DNA of 63,853 bases, counting the filler, from Reticulomyxa filosa (Eukaryota > Protista > Foraminifera): NCBI GenBank assembly GCA_000512085.1. It is 18 parts of 18 records of this genome, joined end to end, with 100 filler letters (N's around TTAATTAATTAA, not from the genome) between each part and the next. Parts side by side here need not be neighbours in the genome. Positions count along the whole stretch, not along the records: positions 48,353 to 56,695 come from ASPP01027279.1; 17 more parts are not named here. The stretch is one strand, 5' to 3'. The position numbers and the translations under genes are program-made. Below, piece after piece: positions 32-56,695 of this stretch (within the stretch, counting starts at the first letter, position 1; the number at the start of each line of letters is the position of its first letter). The notes under the pieces were generated by a model. It searched no databases, was not told the DNA's origin, and was given only the letters and a program-made list of their open reading frames with translations.

Positions 32-3000
32 TCAATTGTTGAATTTTCTTAGAATCTTGTGGAATACTTTCATTTCGTAAAAATAATAACAAATGATACA
101 ACAATCGTATAATATAAATGTTAAAGGTTTCAACGTGCTTGGCTCTGTTTTTTTAGGGGATGAATAATATCTCTTCAATACAAACCAATCATCTTTCGTA
201 TCTATTGTATCCTTCCATTGACTTGACTTTTTGGATATTGTTTTAATTATAGTTCCTCCACACCATTTATTTGACATTTCACTTGTTTCAAAATGTCCTC
301 TGATCCATCAATTAATAGTGCATGATTGTTTGAACAATAGTGCACTTTTAAAGACCCATTTGATATTGTTTCAATTCAGCTGATATAGGCAAAAATGACT
401 CGGAATCAACCAATAGCAATTGAAATGGATTCTGTTTCATAAATGGAAGAATGGACACGAAATGGAAACTTAATCTTGTCACAATCACGTCAAGTGTATC
501 TCTCATGGAAAGCGTCAGACTGTCCTTCGAAGAAGCCCAATTAGTGATAGTTTGTAAAAGCTTCTTGGACTCATTATGCACTTCAGTGGATAGGAAAAAA
601 TCTACAACAGTATAATTCAGTACCCAATTTTGATATGCTTTCACCAAAATTATATGGAAAATAAAAATATTTAAAAATAAACTACAAAAAAAAAAAAAAA
701 ACTTTAGCTTTGAGATTGATCATCCAAGTAGTGTTCACATGAATTAATTAAAGGAAACAGCTGTGCAATTATTTGGTGATAAATATTGTGAGAGCAACTG
801 TTGAGCGGAATGGAAGATTTTCCACTTATGATACGCTGTATATTGTTCATGCGAGTATTACTTCCATACACTCCAATGAAAGGATTGAAAGAATTATTGC
901 GCAACGTCCTTGCACGCAACAAACGGAATACATTGCTTGTCTTTAATTTCTCAAATAGAGGAGACGTCATACCAATATATGATTGTGTGAATATGATTTC
1001 AATCCAATGAATCCCCTTCCACATATAAATTTGTTTCAAAAACCACACATGCAAAGCATGTTTGTACTGTCCATGACAACTGCTGAAATCTGACAATACT
1101 TTACTTATTTCTACTAATGAATTAAATACATTCTTGTTTTCTTCAAGTTGTGACAGATCAATATCCTCATTAATCATGCCGCGAATAAGTCTCGTAACTT
1201 CCACCTTCACTTTTGAAATTTTTACAACGCAGCCAAGAGCAGAGGTATTATTTTTATCACATAACTTCTTCCAGTATTTTCTATCCTCATTTATTTTATT
1301 CTTCAAAAGCATCAATTCCAAACAACGATTCAACCGTGCTGCCTCATCCGAATACAAAGCAAGATTATTATTTAAATATTCATGTGATACCATTTCCTTC
1401 AAAATTTGCATTTTGGGAATTAATTTATTTCCAATTTTGGAATACAACTTTCGCAAAATTGAGATATATACCTTACGTTTATCTGCATTCTTTTCAATTC
1501 TTTCCACACGTTTGATTGCGATGAGTAAATTTTGAATAAAATCAGAATATTTTTGTTTGGAAGCATTTTGATGAGTGGAATAGCCTTGAAGAATGTGATC
1601 AATTGAGGTTTCATTTTCCAAAAAACCATGTTCAATCAAATGTTTTTCTTCATTTATAAATTTACTTGTTCCTAAATGCATGATCCCAAGATTTTGGAGT
1701 TCAATTTTTCGAGCACTTGCCAATAACATATTCACAAGATTTGTATTGTCATTTCGTAGGCGTTTAAATAAAAAATTGAAAAGGATTGAAATCGAAGCAG
1801 GAAAAAATAGTATATCCCCACGTATAGTATACATTTTCTTCAATGAAATCGACTCCCAAAGAGATAGAGTCATTTGCACCAACCATTGTCCAGGTTGGTT
1901 TTCAGGGACATCATCTTTCACATGTGCAAGCCTGGAACAGATAGAGATCAAATATGCATAATGGAAAATGATGTAACGATAATGATGTGTGATCACTTCA
2001 ATCGTGGCAATAGTCAATTTGCCACACAATAACAATGCCATAGACACAATCACATTTCGTAGAACGGTTTGTTGATTTGCCGTGTGCAAATACCATGAAA
2101 ATTCAAATCGAACCAAATCCATTGCATATCCATGAGTTACTTTCAGAGAATAATCTACTTCCCAATTTTTTAAATTGTCATTTCCAATTGGTATTTGTTC
2201 CAACATTGCCGCATGTGAAATTGGATCATTTTGTAGTGCTTTGGAATATTTCGAGAGTTGTCGTTGACACCACGAATGAATAGAATAACTAAATGGAAAA
2301 GAACATTGCAAATAATTTTGAATTGAATACAGTTGAGGATTAATTACAGCCAACAACAAGTGATTGGTATCGATGTTCACTGGTCTCATTTTGATCAGTC
2401 CTTCATTTCGCAATGCCCTTTCAAATAATTGTTGATACGTTTCGTTTTTCTTTTCGTGCCTCTTTTTGCTTTCGATGTATTTCTTTGGATTATTGTTTAT
2501 ATATTGTATATATTATAGTGAAATAAACAAAAATAAAATAAATGACAAAACTGCAAAACCGCCATTTTGATAAATGGCAAATAATACATTGACAAAAGTC
2601 AAAGTTAACAAAGTATTAATAATATTCTGATGTCTTTCGAAAAAAGATCCTTTCATCTTTTTCCTTCCACTTTCCTCTAACTTACACAAAATATCTTCAA
2701 CTGATCGCTGTTGTGCAGCTTTCGACAAGAGATTTTTTACTCGATTTGTAAGAATCGTTTCACACTCTCTGAACTTATCATTCTCGAACAATGATACCAA
2801 TAACTTTTTTTCTTTCAAAAAATCCATAGAATGTGGAAAGTGTAATCTTCCAAAGGCTTTGCATGCGCATTCGAATAAATTCTACAAAAAAGTATGTGTG
2901 TTAATCACTATTTAAAAACAAACATGTAAAAGTATTTACCCTCTTGAGCTTTCTGCCATCTACACTTGCCACTGGTTTTTTCAAATCTTTCTGCAATGAT

Positions 3001-3802
3001 ATTGTATCCGTTAATAATAAATAATCAACATAAATGATCTTCCATTTCCTATTTTTTTTTTAAAAGAGAGAGTTCATTTTTATTTTGACAAAAAGGATTG
3101 TTTTTTAACTGTCGAAATAGCAAAGGAAATGGTAATGTCTTGTTGGTATGGATAAGTAAAATAATCAATTTATGTTTTGCATTATTTTGTGAATTATTAT
3201 AACATAGATAATGCTCAATTTGAAGAATATGTATGATTTGTTCCACTTGATATTTACGTTTGAGTGTGTAACGACATTGCAAGATTAAAATATCATCCAA
3301 AACCTCACTATTAAAGAAATCCTTTACTTTTTTTTCAAATTGATCAACTTTTTTGAATGATGAGATATTTTTTGTACAATGGGCCCATTCCATTGGGATG
3401 TTGCGCTCCATGTCATTCGTTATTACCATTGCCATTTGGTCTTTGCAGTTTTTTCGCTGATTCTGCACAATTGTCCCCTTTTTTATTGCGTCAATTTTTT
3501 AAAAAAAGTTTTGTTGGAAAGGACAATTTTTACTTAACCAATGAATAAAACTGCATATTCTCATTACTCTGCATTTTCACCATTTCCTCTGGTCGACACA
3601 ATGGACGAAATAAATCAAGTAATTCCAATTTCAATTCCTTGTCGTCAAATGTAATGTCATTTAAATTCTTATTTGATATTTGCACTTGTTCCTTTTTTTC
3701 ATCATCTTTGATATCATCTGTTTGCATTGCTTTTTGTGCAGCCAAATAAAGTAATGCCGAGAAAATAGTATCTTCACAATATCCACAAAATAAATCCGAT
3801 AA
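32..3802 (-). CDS. RNF213/mysterin-like giant AAA+/E3 protein, internal fragment (post-AAA region to RZ-finger region), multi-exon, frameshifted near the contig end
   Basis: Collinear motifs resemble RNF213: FCGYCEDTIFSALL (cf. FIGYHSDACASVVL), LRPLCRPEEMV (cf. LLNCATPDAVV), ISSFKKVDQFEKKVKDFF..ILILQC..IILLIH..WKIIYVD, FPFSYSIHSW, SFLP, C-x3-H...C..C, and PLTF(Y)IIRLLYHLLLFL (cf. PVVFLLIRLLTHLALLL). The ORFs at 3530-3745, 3049-3468, 2513-2827, 704-2413, 348-647 and 32-277 are the exons or exon pieces. Confidence 0.75.
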
Positions 3803-48252: not shown

Positions 48253-48505
48253 NNNNNNNNNNNNNNNNNNNNNNNNNNNNNNNNNNNNNNNNNNNNTTAA
48301 TTAATTAANNNNNNNNNNNNNNNNNNNNNNNNNNNNNNNNNNNNNNNNNNNNAAAAAAAACAGTGTTGATGAAATATATTTTAAAAAATGTTAATACTGT
48401 ATTTTGGAAGGAATACTGTTTGGGTTTGGCAAGAAGACCCCGTAACTTTTTCTTTTTTTTTTTACGGTAAAAATTCTTTAATTGGGTTGATTAGAGGTTG
48501 AAATT

Positions 48506-50035
48506 ATGTTGAATTTATTACTGTTTGCTTTCTGTATTGGTTTGTCTGTTGCAGCAGAGTTTTGGGGAGGGTATGGTGCCTGGACGCTGGTGATTTCGTT
48601 GACAACATTGGGACTATGGTTGACAGCAGCCAAAAGGCATGACAATATAGTAACAATTGAGCCATTTCAGCCTTATTTCGGGCATTTGAATGAGTTTAGA
48701 AGATTCTACAGTGGTTCGATGTATGACGACTGTGCCAAATGGTTGGCAAAGTATGAAAAGCATCGAGTGATCGCATTTTCGCTGCCATTGCGAACGTATG
48801 TGTCCATTTTAGACCCAGCTTACATTGAGCTCATATGGACGGCAGAATTTGAATCAGCAGAGAAGTCTGATTTTTTCAACGAAAAGTACGAGCCGTTGTT
48901 CGGGAATGGAATTTTCAACGCAGATGGAAAGATTTGGAGAAAGCACCGAAAAATCGCATCTCAAATATTTACGATGCGCAGTTTGAAGGGCCACATGTTT
49001 GAGTGTTTTATTAACACAACGAAGGATTTTATGGAAAAGATAAGCGAGATGACCAACAAAGGAAATAAGGCGATTGACATTAGTGACATGTTTGGACGCT
49101 TGACATTGGAAGCATTTACATTTATGGCCTTTGGTGCAGAAGTCCCGTGCATTCGAAAGGCGCCCGAAGTGCTCGAATTTCCGAAGGCATTTGATGCGGC
49201 ATTTGTTATATGCAGTCGCCGTTGGCTGAACCCGCTGTTCAAATTGGAATCGTGGCTAAATATTGGCAAGGAAAAAGAATTGAAACAACACGTGAAAGTA
49301 GTGAATAAATTTGTATCTGATGTCATTGCACAGAGAAAAGACATGAAATATCGTGACGAGCTGGCCAAGCGATACGACCTCATTTCCTCGTTTTTGCAAG
49401 ACAAGGAACATCAAATGACTGAGAAAGAATTACGTGATATTACTATCAATTTCATCACTGCTGGCAGGGACACCACAGCCAGTTTGCTGACGTGGACTTG
49501 CTACGAACTCGCAATGCATCCTGATATCTGCGACAAAGTTCGAAAAGAGGTCGTCTCTTTGTGCGGCGATGACGCTGACGATTTTATGTCCTTTGACCAG
49601 GTCACCAAAATGACCTATTTGGAAGCGGTTCTTTTTGAGACACTGCGCTTACATCCTTCCGTACCTGTCTTATTGCGCTTTGCAACCAGGGATATTCACC
49701 TACCCGGCGGTGAAATCATTCGAAAAGGTGAAGGTGTTGTTATCAATGCCTACGCTTTGGCACGCTTGGACAAATTTTGGAAAGATCCTCTCAAGTTTGA
49801 TCCTACCCGCTTTTTGGACCAAACGTACTCCCCTGCCCAGTATCCCTATTTCAACTTGCCTCCTCGCTTGTGCTTGGGCAAACACGTGGCTATCATGGAA
49901 ACCAAAATTGCTATCGCCAAGCTTGCGATGAAATACAACTTCAAGTTGAAAGAGGGGCAATCCTTTGTGCCTACTTTCAGTGCAACTATGCAATTAAAAG
50001 AAGGAATGAAAATGCACTTTATTCCAAGAACATAA
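48506..50035 (+). CDS. Cytochrome P450, intronless, resembling CYP86/94/704-type fatty-acid hydroxylases
   Basis: N-terminal membrane anchor; GIFNADGKIWRKHRK; I-helix FITAGRDTT; K-helix ETLRLHP; FDPTRF; heme loop FNLPPRLCLG. Confidence 0.96.
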   Translation: MLNLLLFAFCIGLSVAAEFWGGYGAWTLVISLTTLGLWLTAAKRHDNIVTIEPFQPYFGHLNEFRRFYSGSMYDDCAKWLAKYEKHRVIAFSLPLRTYVSILDPAYIELIWTAEFESAEKSDFFNEKYEPLFGNGIFNADGKIWRKHRKIASQIFTMRSLKGHMFECFINTTKDFMEKISEMTNKGNKAIDISDMFGRLTLEAFTFMAFGAEVPCIRKAPEVLEFPKAFDAAFVICSRRWLNPLFKLESWLNIGKEKELKQHVKVVNKFVSDVIAQRKDMKYRDELAKRYDLISSFLQDKEHQMTEKELRDITINFITAGRDTTASLLTWTCYELAMHPDICDKVRKEVVSLCGDDADDFMSFDQVTKMTYLEAVLFETLRLHPSVPVLLRFATRDIHLPGGEIIRKGEGVVINAYALARLDKFWKDPLKFDPTRFLDQTYSPAQYPYFNLPPRLCLGKHVAIMETKIAIAKLAMKYNFKLKEGQSFVPTFSATMQLKEGMKMHFIPRT

Positions 50036-52558: not shown

Positions 52559-53228
52559 ATGGCCCTAGAAAAAAACTCACAGTGCAAAAACTCGAATATA
52601 ACAACAAAGATAAGTGAGAATTTTCCTTTGGTCATGTAACGATAAAAAGTCCACATATCTTTGCAGTAACCAAGTTGTCGTACGCCAGTGTAAACTTGAA
52701 ACCTGTATTGCCTGGTATGTGATTCTTTCGGTCAAGTTTAAAGGTCGAAAAACCACGGAGACGAAGGTAACAGGGGAAAAAATGAAGGTCATGTACTGGT
52801 GATCACGCAGCGAAAAGTTGAACGAATGAAAGATTTAACACCAGAAGAGCTGTCTGATATGTGGCTGCTAGCACAGCAAGTCTCAGTAATCCTAGAGCAA
52901 CAATACAATGCATCTTCTGCCACATTCGCAATTCAAGATGGTATCGATGCAGGGCAAACTATCAAGCAAGTGCATATCCATATTATTCCTAGACATAAAA
53001 ATGATTTTGAATCGAATGACCAAATATATACTGAGGTATGTTTTTTTGTTGTTTGATACTGTTTTGCAAAATGCTCCTTTGGTTGGAAATTCACAGCTAG
53101 AAAAAGACAGCAAACACGGCAAGAAATTGGATTTAGATGATAAAACACGAAAAGTTCAATCTTTTGAAGAAATGGCAAAAGAATCACAAACTTACAGAGA
53201 AGCGTTAGAAAAATATCTCAAAGATTAA
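52559..53228 (+). CDS. FHIT: Bis(5'-adenosyl)-triphosphatase (FHIT-branch HIT hydrolase), 3 exons; start uncertain
   Basis: FGHVTIKSPHIFAVTKLSYASVNLKPVLPG|HVLVITQRKVERMKDLTPEELSDMW..FAIQDGIDAGQTIKQVHIHIIPRHKNDFESNDQIYTE|LE..EEMAKES..YR. Introns at about 52715-52788 and 53036-53097. Joining to the ATG at 52559 needs a one-base homopolymer correction near 52627. Confidence 0.93.
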
Positions 53229-53570: not shown

Positions 53571-56500
53571 ATGGCTGAAATTCAAAAAAATGCAAAAGAT
53601 AATCACAAGCGTGTGTCATCATGTACGTTAATCTGATTTAAGTGTTTGTCATGTATGTTTGCACGCTTTGGAAAGAAATGAGACGGAACATTATTGTATA
53701 CAGCTGGTCTGGAAGGGCTGAAGATACTGACGGATATCATAAGCCAACATTTGAGGCGAATGAAGGAACAAGATTCGTTAGTGGAAGCAGCTATCGATAA
53801 CGTATCTGACAAAGAGAATCAAACGATGTTAAGAAAAGCCAAACAAAAAGCTTTGGAAGAAGAAAAACAGTTATTGAGTTCATTGCAGTTATTGGAATTG
53901 GGTGATTTTCTGCGAAACTCAGTTGAGTTTTTTTTGCAATTTATCTTTTCTCTCATTACGGCCTTGTGGAATTACGTGTAACACATATCTTTTTTTTTTT
54001 GAACAAAAAGGTATTAATTCAGAGAATGTATGACGAGTTATATGTACCTCATAAAAGTGAGCAGAAAAAGGCAAGAACTACTTATGCACCAGAAATGGAA
54101 GAATATGAAAGCAAGCCAGTGCCTTTGACTGAAGTTTTTTTAAGAAAATTACATCTCTTCTTTTGATACATCTTGGGAAGGGATACGTGTACATGTATAT
54201 ACATTGCATATATGTACATAAAAGGGGTCAAATATTGTATCGCTTTTATTTGGAGCACAACATTTGTATCTCCCTGCTTTTGAAAAGTTCATTTCTCAAG
54301 TGTTGTCCCAATTCAAGAAACAAGAGATAAAATTAGTCAATCATTCCAAAGTGTCATGCAAGAATATTGAACGAACTTTTTTACAAGGTTTGTTTTTTTT
54401 TTTTATGTATTATAAGCGTTACAAATGATACGTATATATAATTGACATTTTTTAGAGACTATTTTTCGAAACTTACTTTTACGAATGAAATACATAAATA
54501 CATCACAAATGACAAATAATGAACAATTGCAATGTTACAGACGTATTACGTATATATCGGGGATCACAAGAAACTGACCGATTTGTTGCGATGCTTGTTT
54601 GTGTTTGATAACTTTGGCGATTTGTATCGAGCATTTGCGATAATAAAAGACATGACAAATGAGAATAAGGCAATGAAAGGTGGAATATTACGCGTGGAAG
54701 ATCGGTTCAATAGCGAAGAAGTCCCCTTCGGATATCGAGACTTGACAGTGAACGTGAATTGCCCGGGGACCAATTTGGTCTGCGAAGTGCAATTCCATCA
54801 TCGACTCTTTTACAAGTATCATAAGCACTCACATAACATATACAAGCGTGCCAGATTGTTTGAAGCTGGCGGTCGAAACAAGGCCTACGACTACATTGTG
54901 AAATACATTGAACCAAAGATTAGCCAAGATGAGCATTACGTCGCATGCACGAGCCTTGATACGAACACAAACGCGAAAACGGATGATGCCACTGACATTG
55001 ATGTTGATATGGACATTGAAACCGACAATGGCACTACCAATGACAATGACACTACCAATGACAATGACAGCGAAAAAGAGGAGGAAGAAGGAGCAGCCAA
55101 CGCCGTCACCAAAGGCAAAAGCGAAACGCACAAAGCCACGTGTCAAGACCTGCTCAAAAAGTGGCTTCCTGATCGAACTCAAAAGTCGTCGGACGGTATT
55201 ATCCAAATTGACGTTGACGGCACACCAAAGTCATATTTGCAAATCCTAGGTTAATATATTTTTTTTAAAAAAAATAAATTAGATGAATAAATTATTTCTC
55301 CTACGCGTATACACCATACATATATGCACATATACATATAATATGTGTATATACTCTTGACACAGAGGGAGATGGATTTGACCTCGTGGAAAGCTGGGAG
55401 GACTTGACTGAAGACGACTTGAAAGAAATGGGATTCAAGACCGGACATTTGAGGGCATTTTTGAAACAGAAGAAAGAGTACTTTGAAAATATCAACCAAA
55501 AAAAACAGGCTAAACAACAAGCCATGGAAAAGACCAAAAGAGAGCGACATGAGAGATTGGAAAGGGACTGGATGAAGAGAGAAGAAGGACGACGACACAA
55601 TGAGATATTGGGAAAAGAAAAAGAAGAAAAAGAAAAAGCAAATGAATTGGAATTGAATAGATTACGATTGGAAAATGAGAAATTGAAAGCACAAGCAAGC
55701 AAGAAAGACACAGAGGAGGAACACAAGTGTGTGGACGCACGAAAGGGCAGTAATGAGGTTGTGGTCCAACCCTTGGACGACTTGCATATCTATGGACAAC
55801 TGGACGACGAAAAATACTTGTTGATTGAAGACACGGTGAAATGTCTGACCACGGTCGAGTCGATTGTAATCTCGTGCCAATGGAAGGATCAAGGCTGGGG
55901 AAACCAAAAGTCAAGGATTTATTTGCGCATCATCGACCCCAGTGGACGTCCAAAACAAGACGTGGATATTTTTGGCATTGCGTCTCATCACTGGCAAAAT
56001 GTGACCAAGACTTATGACGGAAACACAGAGATCATAAAGGCTATTGCCAAAGGGGATAGTCTTCAATTTGCGCGTTATGTCGGAAGTGGTGGAGGACACG
56101 AAGTTTTGTTTTTTTTTTATGTATCAAGTTTTTATAACTATGTATTGTGTGTGTGTTTATGGAATGGGGCACACGTAGCTATTTGTGAATGGATTCAAAG
56201 CAGTGATCAACTTCAGTTACAATCTTCCTTATATATATGTATATATATGTATATCTATCATCTCAACCAATGCAAGTCAACAACCCCTCCTTTTCAATCA
56301 AATCTTTGTGTGTGGCTGCATGCTTTATGGACAAAGATGTGACCGGACAAGAAGTGGTGGAAGTGAATGCAGAAGATATGCATTTATATGGAGAGCTCAA
56401 CGATAAGAAACAGTTGCTGGTTGAAGACACAGTGCGATGTAATGCAGCGGTCGAATCAGTAACGATCTCTTGCCAATGGAAAGATCAAGGATGGGGAAAC

Positions 56501-56695
56501 TGCAAGTCACGCATCTTTTTGCGTATCAACGAAGCAGATGGAACACGAAAGCAAGATGTTGATTTGTTTGGAATTGCGTCACATAATTGGGAAAAAGTCA
56601 GCAAAACCTTTGATGCTGACAACGAGGTCGTCAAAGGCATTCCTAAAGGTGGCTCTCTTCAATTTGTTCGTTATGTCGGCGATGGTGGTGGACAT
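53571..56695 (+). CDS. Multidomain protein: helical N-terminus, RelA/SpoT-like nucleotidyltransferase, SAM, coiled coil, at least two tandem 'DQGWG' domains; multi-exon, 3'-partial
   Basis: KNIERTF(YK)|TYY..LTDLLRCLFVF..ILRVEDRF..GYRDLTVNV..VCEVQFH..HNIYKRAR. SAM: DLLKKW..SYLQIL|EGDGFDLVESWEDLTEDDLKEMGFKTGHLRAFLK. Two repeats with CQWKDQGWGN.KSRI.LRI and FxRYVGxGGGH. GT-AG introns join these segments, with one extra T needed near 54380. Confidence 0.8.

Follow-up and report, generated by a model that had tools for sequence, protein, structure and literature searches.

We analysed a window of 63,853 nucleotides of DNA from the foraminiferan Reticulomyxa filosa, made of 18 parts joined end to end, and describe a gene in which a RelA/SpoT-like synthetase is joined to a SAM domain and tandem repeats. 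Eight exons and seven GT-AG introns encode it on the + strand, from 53571 to 56695, the end of its contig (48353-56695, ASPP01027279.1). With a little better than an even chance, we read it as a sensor-coupled synthetase of the RelA/SpoT class that would transfer pyrophosphate from ATP to a nucleotide on ligand binding, in a copy that is probably weakened. The family to which it belongs likely works as sensor-coupled alarmone synthetases; a constant hairpin-synthetase-SAM core with one exchangeable module makes the layout of a receptor family. The word nucleotidyltransferase names the fold of such a domain, and the chemistry expected of it is pyrophosphate transfer.

Synthetase and SAM domains

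The domain order is a helical hairpin, the synthetase (SYNTH) domain, an acidic linker, a SAM domain, a coil and two 114-aa repeats. A first-pass annotation of this DNA had proposed the RelA/SpoT motif series in a single spliced gene. Five of its motifs lie in exon 5 in the order given, whereas the K-x3-R-x3-K placed ahead of them is out of frame because of a frameshift. The synthetase features of exon 5 are as follows.

54541..54909, + strand: synthetase core with D-x-x-R, R-x-[K>E]-D-R-F, GYRD-x3-N, E-x-Q-x-H and H-x-x-Y
54580..54591, + strand: D-x-x-R
54688..54708, + strand: LRVEDRF
54730..54741, + strand: GYRD
54781..54798, + strand: CEVQFH
54832..54843, + strand: H-x-x-Y

Across the family, the catalytic residues are kept in 68 of 68 rows (Asp), 75 of 76 (Glu) and 74 of 74 (Gln), and the first motif in 59 of 60 (first K), 60 of 62 (R) and 63 of 65 (last K). 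In SaEAS, D121, R124, E182 and Q184 are named as active-site residues in PMC12691689. The window copy keeps both the catalytic Asp and the catalytic Glu.

The fold was examined on the relative P0002, modelled with AlphaFold2 from 14 sequences (pLDDT 81.6), by Foldseek and by a Foldseek-free VIA search of 48,161 chains. VIA ranks 1-10 for the P0002 model were all RelA/SpoT homologue (RSH) synthetases, with Z from 8.8 to 11.9, and unrelated rows began at 7.9. The top match was B. subtilis Rel (Z 11.9, root-mean-square deviation (rmsd) 2.8, 136 residues aligned); the Z scores were 11.2 for RelP, 10.6 for RelQ, 10.3 for SaEAS, 10.0 for Tas1, 9.7 for CapRel and 8.8 for SpoT. Among the rows listed by Foldseek, 26 of 26 were RSH entries (best E 4.6e-5). 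These results support a RelA/SpoT synthetase fold for the domain, as the annotation had proposed. By sequence the signal is fainter. Pfam RelA_SpoT matched relatives at E 0.002 and 0.009. A 35-sequence family profile matched Tas1 at E=0.0025, over K-x3-R-x3-K and D-x-x-R, and SaEAS at E=0.044, over GY, E-x-Q-F-H and H-x-x-Y; the other five of its seven rows were unrelated or coiled-coil matches, and RelP and RelQ were not matched at E<=10. On these weak matches, Tas1/Apk1 and SaEAS appear to be the nearest solved relatives. The HD family was not found by Pfam on the window pieces or on P0002, in line with the annotation, and the ~130 residues before the SYNTH domain model as three helices. The fold lists likewise contain no HD-domain row, an absence that carries no weight alone. 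These three long helices (P0002 residues 15-130) gave generic helical matches only.

Helices 15-49 and 54-77 of the P0002 model form the N-terminal hairpin, which was present in 39 of the 40 family rows with room for it. A SAM domain follows the core in 25 of 34 rows with room; both counts were made with profiles built from the same sequence set. The SAM domain, which the annotation had also recognised, is real. The family profile matched the Caskin-1 SAM at E=1.4e-8, residues 350-434 of the P0002 model matched SAM domains (EphA5 SAM, Z 8.8, rmsd 1.5, 66 aligned), and Pfam SAM scored above cut-off in P0005, L001 and P0012; on the window piece, Pfam SAM_2 reached E=0.01 only. The synthetase and the parts after it belong to one gene, as had been claimed. 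Synthetase and SAM share one reading frame in P0002, in L001 and in the 25 rows just counted, and the annotated paralog P0003 carries the C-terminal half of the synthetase, the SAM domain, the coil and one repeat in one protein. The hypothetical proteins P0003 (71% identity over the core) and P0010, both from Reticulomyxa filosa, are the closest named proteins. The gene product is likely cytosolic. A signal-peptide-like stretch was not found in it (highest 19-aa hydropathy 0.36 near the N-terminus and 1.15 overall). Only ~15-20 residues stand ahead of the conserved hairpin as room for any plastid transit peptide.

Beyond the SAM domain, the annotated order of a charged coiled coil and then two repeats was borne out. 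Repeat 2 is 63% identical to repeat 1 over 114 aa, with a nonsynonymous divergence (dN) of 0.265 and a synonymous divergence (dS) of 1.356. The resulting dN/dS of ~0.2 indicates that the repeats diverged under purifying selection. The repeat model, built from three sequences and missing the last strand, was all-beta (pLDDT 74). Its structural Z scores were 7.5 for a tailspike module (rmsd 3.1, 99 aligned), 6.2-6.8 for carbohydrate-binding modules (CBMs) and 6.1 for Fbs2, and there were two phage tail matches at E 7-8e-4. For an Atlas model of the P0003 copy, TM scores were 0.62-0.71 with CBM_4_9-bearing clusters and 0.74 with a heterolobosean cluster that has no name. Feature likeness pointed to unnamed giant-virus (0.94), fungal and F-box-linked animal (cnidarian) clusters. 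Like the galactose-binding-like and CBM jelly rolls and Fbs1/Fbs2, the repeat is a predicted beta-sandwich, and CBMs, tailspike modules and Fbs1/Fbs2 are frequent in its match lists; it differs from the CBM and FBA lectin matches in that Z does not exceed 7.5, identity is 7-12% and the repeat has no Pfam family. The models therefore give middling support to a CBM-like jelly roll, and sugar binding by the repeat would be a guess. No relatives of the repeat were found by sequence in the protein database (longer proteins only), viral contigs or phages, and among 157 collected proteins it occurred only in P0003. The W-K-D-Q-G-W-G repeat (55758-56695) fits no named family and is a putative eukaryotic jelly-roll domain, as yet unnamed, that merits definition.

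A foraminiferan family and its proposed mechanism

A profile search of 1.84 billion representatives returned 1536 clusters at E<=0.001, of which 272 reached 1e-10 and 94 reached 1e-30; the profile included the SAM domain and flanks, so the weak hits are mixed, and the best 150 were seen. The 30 clusters looked up comprised 14 foraminiferan (Elphidium, Nonionella, Bolivina, Reticulomyxa), one from the cryptophyte Guillardia, a distant row, and 15 with no organism. Many members occur in ordinary transcriptomes. Close relatives of the core were not found in viral contigs or in prokaryote genomes, the latter by a pattern-based search that detects close relatives only. The best named bacterial tblastn match was a Photobacterium locus (E 5e-5), where two tandem unannotated synthetase-like open reading frames (ORFs) with N-terminal leaders (L005 85-1917) are collinear with the family core at 45.6 and 54.9 bits. 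NCBIfam gave no name to these ORFs, and the label 'RelV-like' rests on their motifs, genus and N-terminal leaders.

Among the 24 rows with full hairpin, core and SAM, 20 had an extension of at least 100 aa (14 N-terminal and 6 C-terminal) and none had one on both sides, although truncated transcripts may hide some extensions in this count. The added domains were scanned with Pfam in 63 of 144 new hits and in the earlier hits. Sugar-related ones were galectin, AbfB and C-type-lectin-like domains. Others were TLDc, C1/ZZ, WW, UBA, ubiquitin, Hint, 14-3-3, SPRY, Kelch and MATH domains, and there were also kinesin with EF-hands and choline-transporter-like domains.

Several members have architectures of their own. 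In L001, three tandem ~135-residue domains without a Pfam family follow the SAM domain (1870-3110); L004, whose match fell outside long ORFs, was left out. P0042, P0047, P0050, P0051 and P0053 form a clade in which the synthetase is attached to the C-terminus of a choline-transporter-like membrane protein, and they could be transporter-coupled alarmone synthetases. P0008 resembles a single-pass receptor enzyme: its hydrophobic N-terminal leader and Cys-rich, LNR-like region are joined by a stretch that looks membrane-spanning and by WW, synthetase and SAM domains. P0030 carries ubiquitin domains and a Hint/intein-like domain before the core, where self-cleavage could free the enzyme.

In the mechanism we propose, the fixed core of hairpin, synthetase and SAM would be the working unit, and the hairpin would hold the enzyme down or dimerise it. 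When the swappable module binds its ligand, the enzyme would transfer pyrophosphate from ATP to a nucleotide 3'-OH; the likeliest acceptor is GTP or GDP, which would give (p)ppGpp. In the window gene the module would be the tandem CBM-like repeats on their coiled-coil stalk, and multivalent binding, likely of a glycan, would cluster the SAM domains and switch the enzyme on. The product would be a stress or defence signal. The layout of sensor, SAM and enzyme is reminiscent of SARM1, and there may be a motif-level likeness to SARM1 and cGAS-like receptors. Tentatively, we suggest a wider picture, a foraminiferan cytoplasmic receptor-to-alarmone system. Its members would be hairpin-synthetase-SAM proteins, numbering in the dozens and carrying a separate sensor apiece, with (p)ppGpp or (p)ppApp as a second messenger; copies like the present one, whose sensor and SAM are intact and whose active site is blunted, would be decoys or adaptors that co-assemble with active paralogs and tune the response. 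The sensors of such a system would be lectins directed at glycans of prey or pathogens, ubiquitin-binding domains, WW and SPRY domains and membrane receptors, and its messenger would be made as cGAS-like receptors make cyclic nucleotides.

As to the product, PMC12691689 describes a Vibrio enzyme, VpEAS, that makes (p)ppGpp only, SaEAS as making both alarmones with a preference for guanylate acceptors, and Apk1 as making (p)ppApp. Given these products and the likeness to the Photobacterium ORFs, (p)ppGpp is the best guess by analogy, with low certainty.

In kind, a eukaryotic RSH that lacks HD and is coupled to a receptor has precedents. The statement that eukaryotic RSH enzymes are plastid-associated and carry an HD domain, made in the first-pass annotation, proved incomplete. 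Synthetase-only divRel proteins without HD are described for Dictyostelium, Aspergillus, Gibberella and two diatoms in PMC3153485, according to which RSH proteins outside plastids are scattered synthetases only and animals have none. In fungal NOD-like receptors (NLRs), RelA_SpoT is a proposed direct effector domain (PMC4986451), and RelA/SpoT-like toxin domains are reported in bacterial polymorphic toxins (PMC3482391). The divRel proteins are, like this family, synthetase-only RSH in non-plant eukaryotes, and the fungal NLRs couple a synthetase to a receptor by the same logic that we propose. Both differ from the family, which has the hairpin, belongs to a different lineage and has a far wider range of added domains; moreover, the window gene has no NACHT or NB-ARC domain and places a SAM domain and a coil between effector and repeats.

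With the Apk1/Tas1-like toxSAS and the exported alarmone synthetase (EAS) enzymes (Tas1, PDB 6OX6; SaEAS, PDB 8VX3; VpEAS/RelV), the family shares the SYNTH fold without HD (Z 10.0 for Tas1 and 10.3 for SaEAS), the motif style of K-x3-R-x3-K, D-x-x-R, GY, E-x-Q-x-H and H-x-x-Y, and modular partner fusions. In contrast to them it is eukaryotic and spliced, with a fixed N-terminal hairpin and C-terminal SAM, and its invariant Asn is shifted by two. Unlike the EAS enzymes, the window gene has no signal peptide or secretion domain. No immunity gene of the toxSAS kind was seen beside it; its upstream neighbour is a Fhit-like hydrolase, and downstream the contig ends. RelP, RelQ and the SYNTH domain of long Rel (PDB 6FGK, 6EWZ, 5DEC, 8ACU) are the top structural matches to P0002 (Z 10.6-11.9), but identity is 9-19%, the motif spacing is different, and the family lacks HD, TGS and ACT. 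No paper on a SAM-coupled or foraminiferan RSH family was found in the open-licence literature, and supplements of the cited papers could list members.

It has long been asked whether eukaryotes other than plants possess enzymes of their own for alarmone synthesis. A lineage-wide RSH expansion with near-invariant active sites, a fixed SAM domain and interchangeable binding domains offers direct test subjects, and, if these enzymes are gated, a new wiring of an old bacterial enzyme into eukaryotic sensing. The locus described here is not the first choice for such work, since it carries a frameshift in the assembly, is cut short and has lost a conserved Lys; intact transcripts such as P0002, P0014 and L001 are better suited.

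The altered copy and rival explanations

Several results weigh against the reading of a sensor-coupled synthetase. The fold was modelled on P0002 and not on the window's own protein. Pfam RelA_SpoT (PF04607) had no match on window exon 5. Among 63 scanned family hits, 10 matched PF04607 at E<=0.01 and one scored above the gathering score. Compared with N169 of SaEAS, the Asn that is invariant in the family sits two positions later on the strand, and the acceptor is therefore not safely readable from sequence. Nine of the 34 rows with room for it lack a SAM domain downstream of the core. The kinesin, ubiquitin and choline-transporter-like additions fit localisation more readily than sensing. 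For the repeat, the fold match is of middling quality (best Z 7.5, none of at least 8), no Foldseek match in the PDB was found for it at E<=0.001, and, given its loose link to F-box proteins, it need not bind sugar. In the copy itself, the DNA as given reads K-x3-R-x3-Q and meets a stop at codon 208. Of 28 positions at least 90% conserved among 56 family rows spanning the core, three are changed (S204L, K238E and K279H in P0002 numbering), whereas among the 39 closest rows 33 depart at no site, three at one and three at two. Finally, the terminal branch of the window copy is 0.207, compared with 0.056-0.135 for P0001, P0002 and P0003. This tree was made with FastTree from 75 rows with a midpoint root; fragments not spanning the core were left out, and P0003 entered as a partial row. 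In rows further away, as many as nine of the conserved sites are changed.

The break and the three substitutions are located as follows.

54377..54382, + strand: run of six T in exon 4 (163 nt), with a +1 shift of the reading frame inside the first motif
54595..54597, + strand: S204L, departure from a conserved site
54697..54699, + strand: Glu codon in place of the near-invariant Lys K238, from conservation counts
54820..54822, + strand: K279H, departure from a conserved site

In the window's first motif, the first K and the R are present and the last K is out of frame. We considered whether splicing could go round the frameshift; the region offers 165 pairs of GT/GC donor and AG acceptor, of which 12 give an open frame, and every one of these 12 deletes K-x3-R-x3-K, so that motif and frame are never retained together. 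One-base homopolymer errors are a common assembly fault. The frame stays open across 15 other runs of at least five in this gene's exons and six in an intronless P450 gene on the same contig, which indicates that such errors are infrequent here. In our judgement, a homopolymer assembly error is favoured over a real lesion by a clear but limited margin. With X at the one break, the model runs for ~799 residues free of stops and shares 56% identity with P0002, which is unbroken, over model residues 13-534. This sole shift aside, no in-frame stop occurs in ~799 codons and all 14 splice sites are canonical. A single shift, together with the dN/dS of ~0.2 between the repeats, suggests that the copy was long under selection.

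The change at K238 bears most directly on activity. The annotation had taken LRVEDRF as a RelA/SpoT motif as it stands; its E in fact takes the place of Lys, the residue found here in 76 of 77 rows of at least 100 bits and in 102 of 105 overall, and the equivalent Lys is kept in both Photobacterium ORFs. By its spacing to G-Y (12 residues, against 11 in SaEAS), K238 likely corresponds to K154 of SaEAS and K353 of Apk1, which PMC12691689 names as ATP-binding. Our literature search on residue roles found nothing. A Lys-to-Glu change would be expected to lower activity. Thus, this copy is probably weakened and may be weak or dead; the altered copy may be a weak enzyme, or a sensor acting through SAM contacts with intact paralogs.

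The rival that survives best, which we consider rather unlikely, is that the locus is a recent pseudogene in a real family, with a real frameshift, active-site changes that are decay, and no full-length protein made from it. It would account for a frameshift within the first motif that no splicing rescues, for changes at three of 28 conserved sites, above any of the 39 close relatives, and for the longer terminal branch; at least two other Reticulomyxa filosa paralogs are annotated (P0003 and P0010), so that one copy is dispensable. However, the break falls in a homopolymer run, where assembly indels usually occur, the catalytic Asp and Glu are kept, and the ~799 codons and 14 canonical splice sites show no other damage. 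The repeat dN/dS of ~0.2 also argues against decay, although it reflects the history since the duplication and not the present.

We think it unlikely that the family consists of regulated toxins, for cell death or against prey, and not of signal makers; such toxins, like Tas1/Apk1 or CapRel, would produce (p)ppApp or transfer pyrophosphate to tRNA. The best sequence match to a solved structure is Tas1 (E=0.0025), CapRel reaches Z 9.7, and the layout of sensor, SAM and enzyme is like that of SARM1. XopAD-type effector models match 6 of 35 members, weakly, and the fungal NLRs of PMC4986451 have RelA_SpoT as a proposed direct effector. Nevertheless, Rel and RelP score in structure equal to or above Tas1 and CapRel, and many members occur in ordinary transcriptomes. 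The closest named bacterial ORFs are, moreover, Photobacterium synthetases with leaders, apparently like the (p)ppGpp-making Vibrio enzymes.

It is more doubtful still that ligand gating is absent and that the added domains serve just to position the synthetase, itself constitutive or under metabolic control, at membranes, at microtubules or where ubiquitin is abundant. Fusions to kinesin with EF-hand, ubiquitin repeats, UBA and choline-transporter-like domains speak for such placement. Several independent carbohydrate-binding folds (galectin, AbfB, C-type-lectin-like and the CBM-like repeat) fit receptor use instead, as does P0008 with its hydrophobic leader, membrane-like stretch and WW, and the conserved SAM and hairpin suggest regulated assembly. 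A bacterial contaminant or a chance motif match has next to no probability: a 63% GC transposase contig in the window shows that the assembly holds contamination, but this gene has seven GT-AG introns, AT-rich like the window and in the host style noted in the annotation, its named relatives are foraminiferan transcripts, and no close relative was seen in viral contigs or in a pattern-based search of prokaryote genomes.

Gene model and neighbouring genes

Exons were placed by GT-AG sites and by tblastn of relatives. The locus is the end of its contig, with a gap from 56696, and the gene is cut there, so that the two repeats are a minimum count. The exons and the remaining domains are as follows.

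53571..53622, + strand: exon 1, with start codon, hydrophilic N-terminus and GT donor at 53623; its frame joins exon 2
53704..53921, + strand: exon 2, N-terminal helical hairpin, 73% identity to P0002 17-91
54011..54133, + strand: exon 3, third long helix before the synthetase domain, from tblastn to P0002 and GT-AG borders
54225..54387, + strand: exon 4, start of the synthetase with K-x3-R-x3-K, 65-68% identity to P0001/P0002, 163 nt, one base over
54541..55249, + strand: exon 5, synthetase core (54541..54909), acidic linker and start of SAM
54910..55134, + strand: acidic low-complexity linker, ~30 residues longer than that of relatives, from alignment and translation
55135..55490, + strand: SAM domain, split by intron 5 (55250-55365), borders approximate, from profile and P0002 model
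55366..56102, + strand: exon 6, GT-AG borders
55491..55735, + strand: charged coiled-coil stretch, borders approximate, from sequence and helix 414-492 of the P0002 model
55758..56215, + strand: repeat 1 (W-K-D-Q-G-W-G motif), predicted beta-sandwich, last strand in exon 7 past intron 6
56179..56215, + strand: exon 7, last strand of repeat 1, after intron 6
56337..56695, + strand: exon 8, repeat 2, ended by the contig end

All seven introns are GT-AG, 76-153 nt long, with a GC content of 0.22-0.35 compared with 0.33-0.44 in the exons. The model aligns with P0002 from residue 13, and exon 1 is the least certain exon. The annotation of P0003 has a short insertion at the position of intron 5 and diverges at intron 6; both fit read-through of the same introns and so support the borders of introns 5 and 6. 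In P0002, the stretch matching the acidic linker has a pLDDT below 50. Pfam NESP55 and DUF4820 were also matched on the linker and were dismissed as low-complexity matches.

At 52630-53228 (+) lies a spliced Fhit-like gene, a bis(5'-adenosyl)-triphosphatase by its best PDB match (E 1.7e-23). It shares the strand of the synthetase gene and stops 343 bases short of it, and the adjacency of a hydrolase and a synthetase of nucleotide signals may be coincidental. Past the gap after 56695, a RING-finger gene is unrelated. The contig at 47202-48252, with 63% GC in a window of 30-40% GC, encodes a transposase helix-turn-helix (Pfam HTH_Tnp_1, E 6.7e-9) and is likely a bacterial insertion-sequence contaminant. 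The intronless ORF at 48491-50035 (+), on the same contig as the synthetase gene, is a cytochrome P450 (Pfam p450, 251 bits) in a genome that is otherwise intron-rich.

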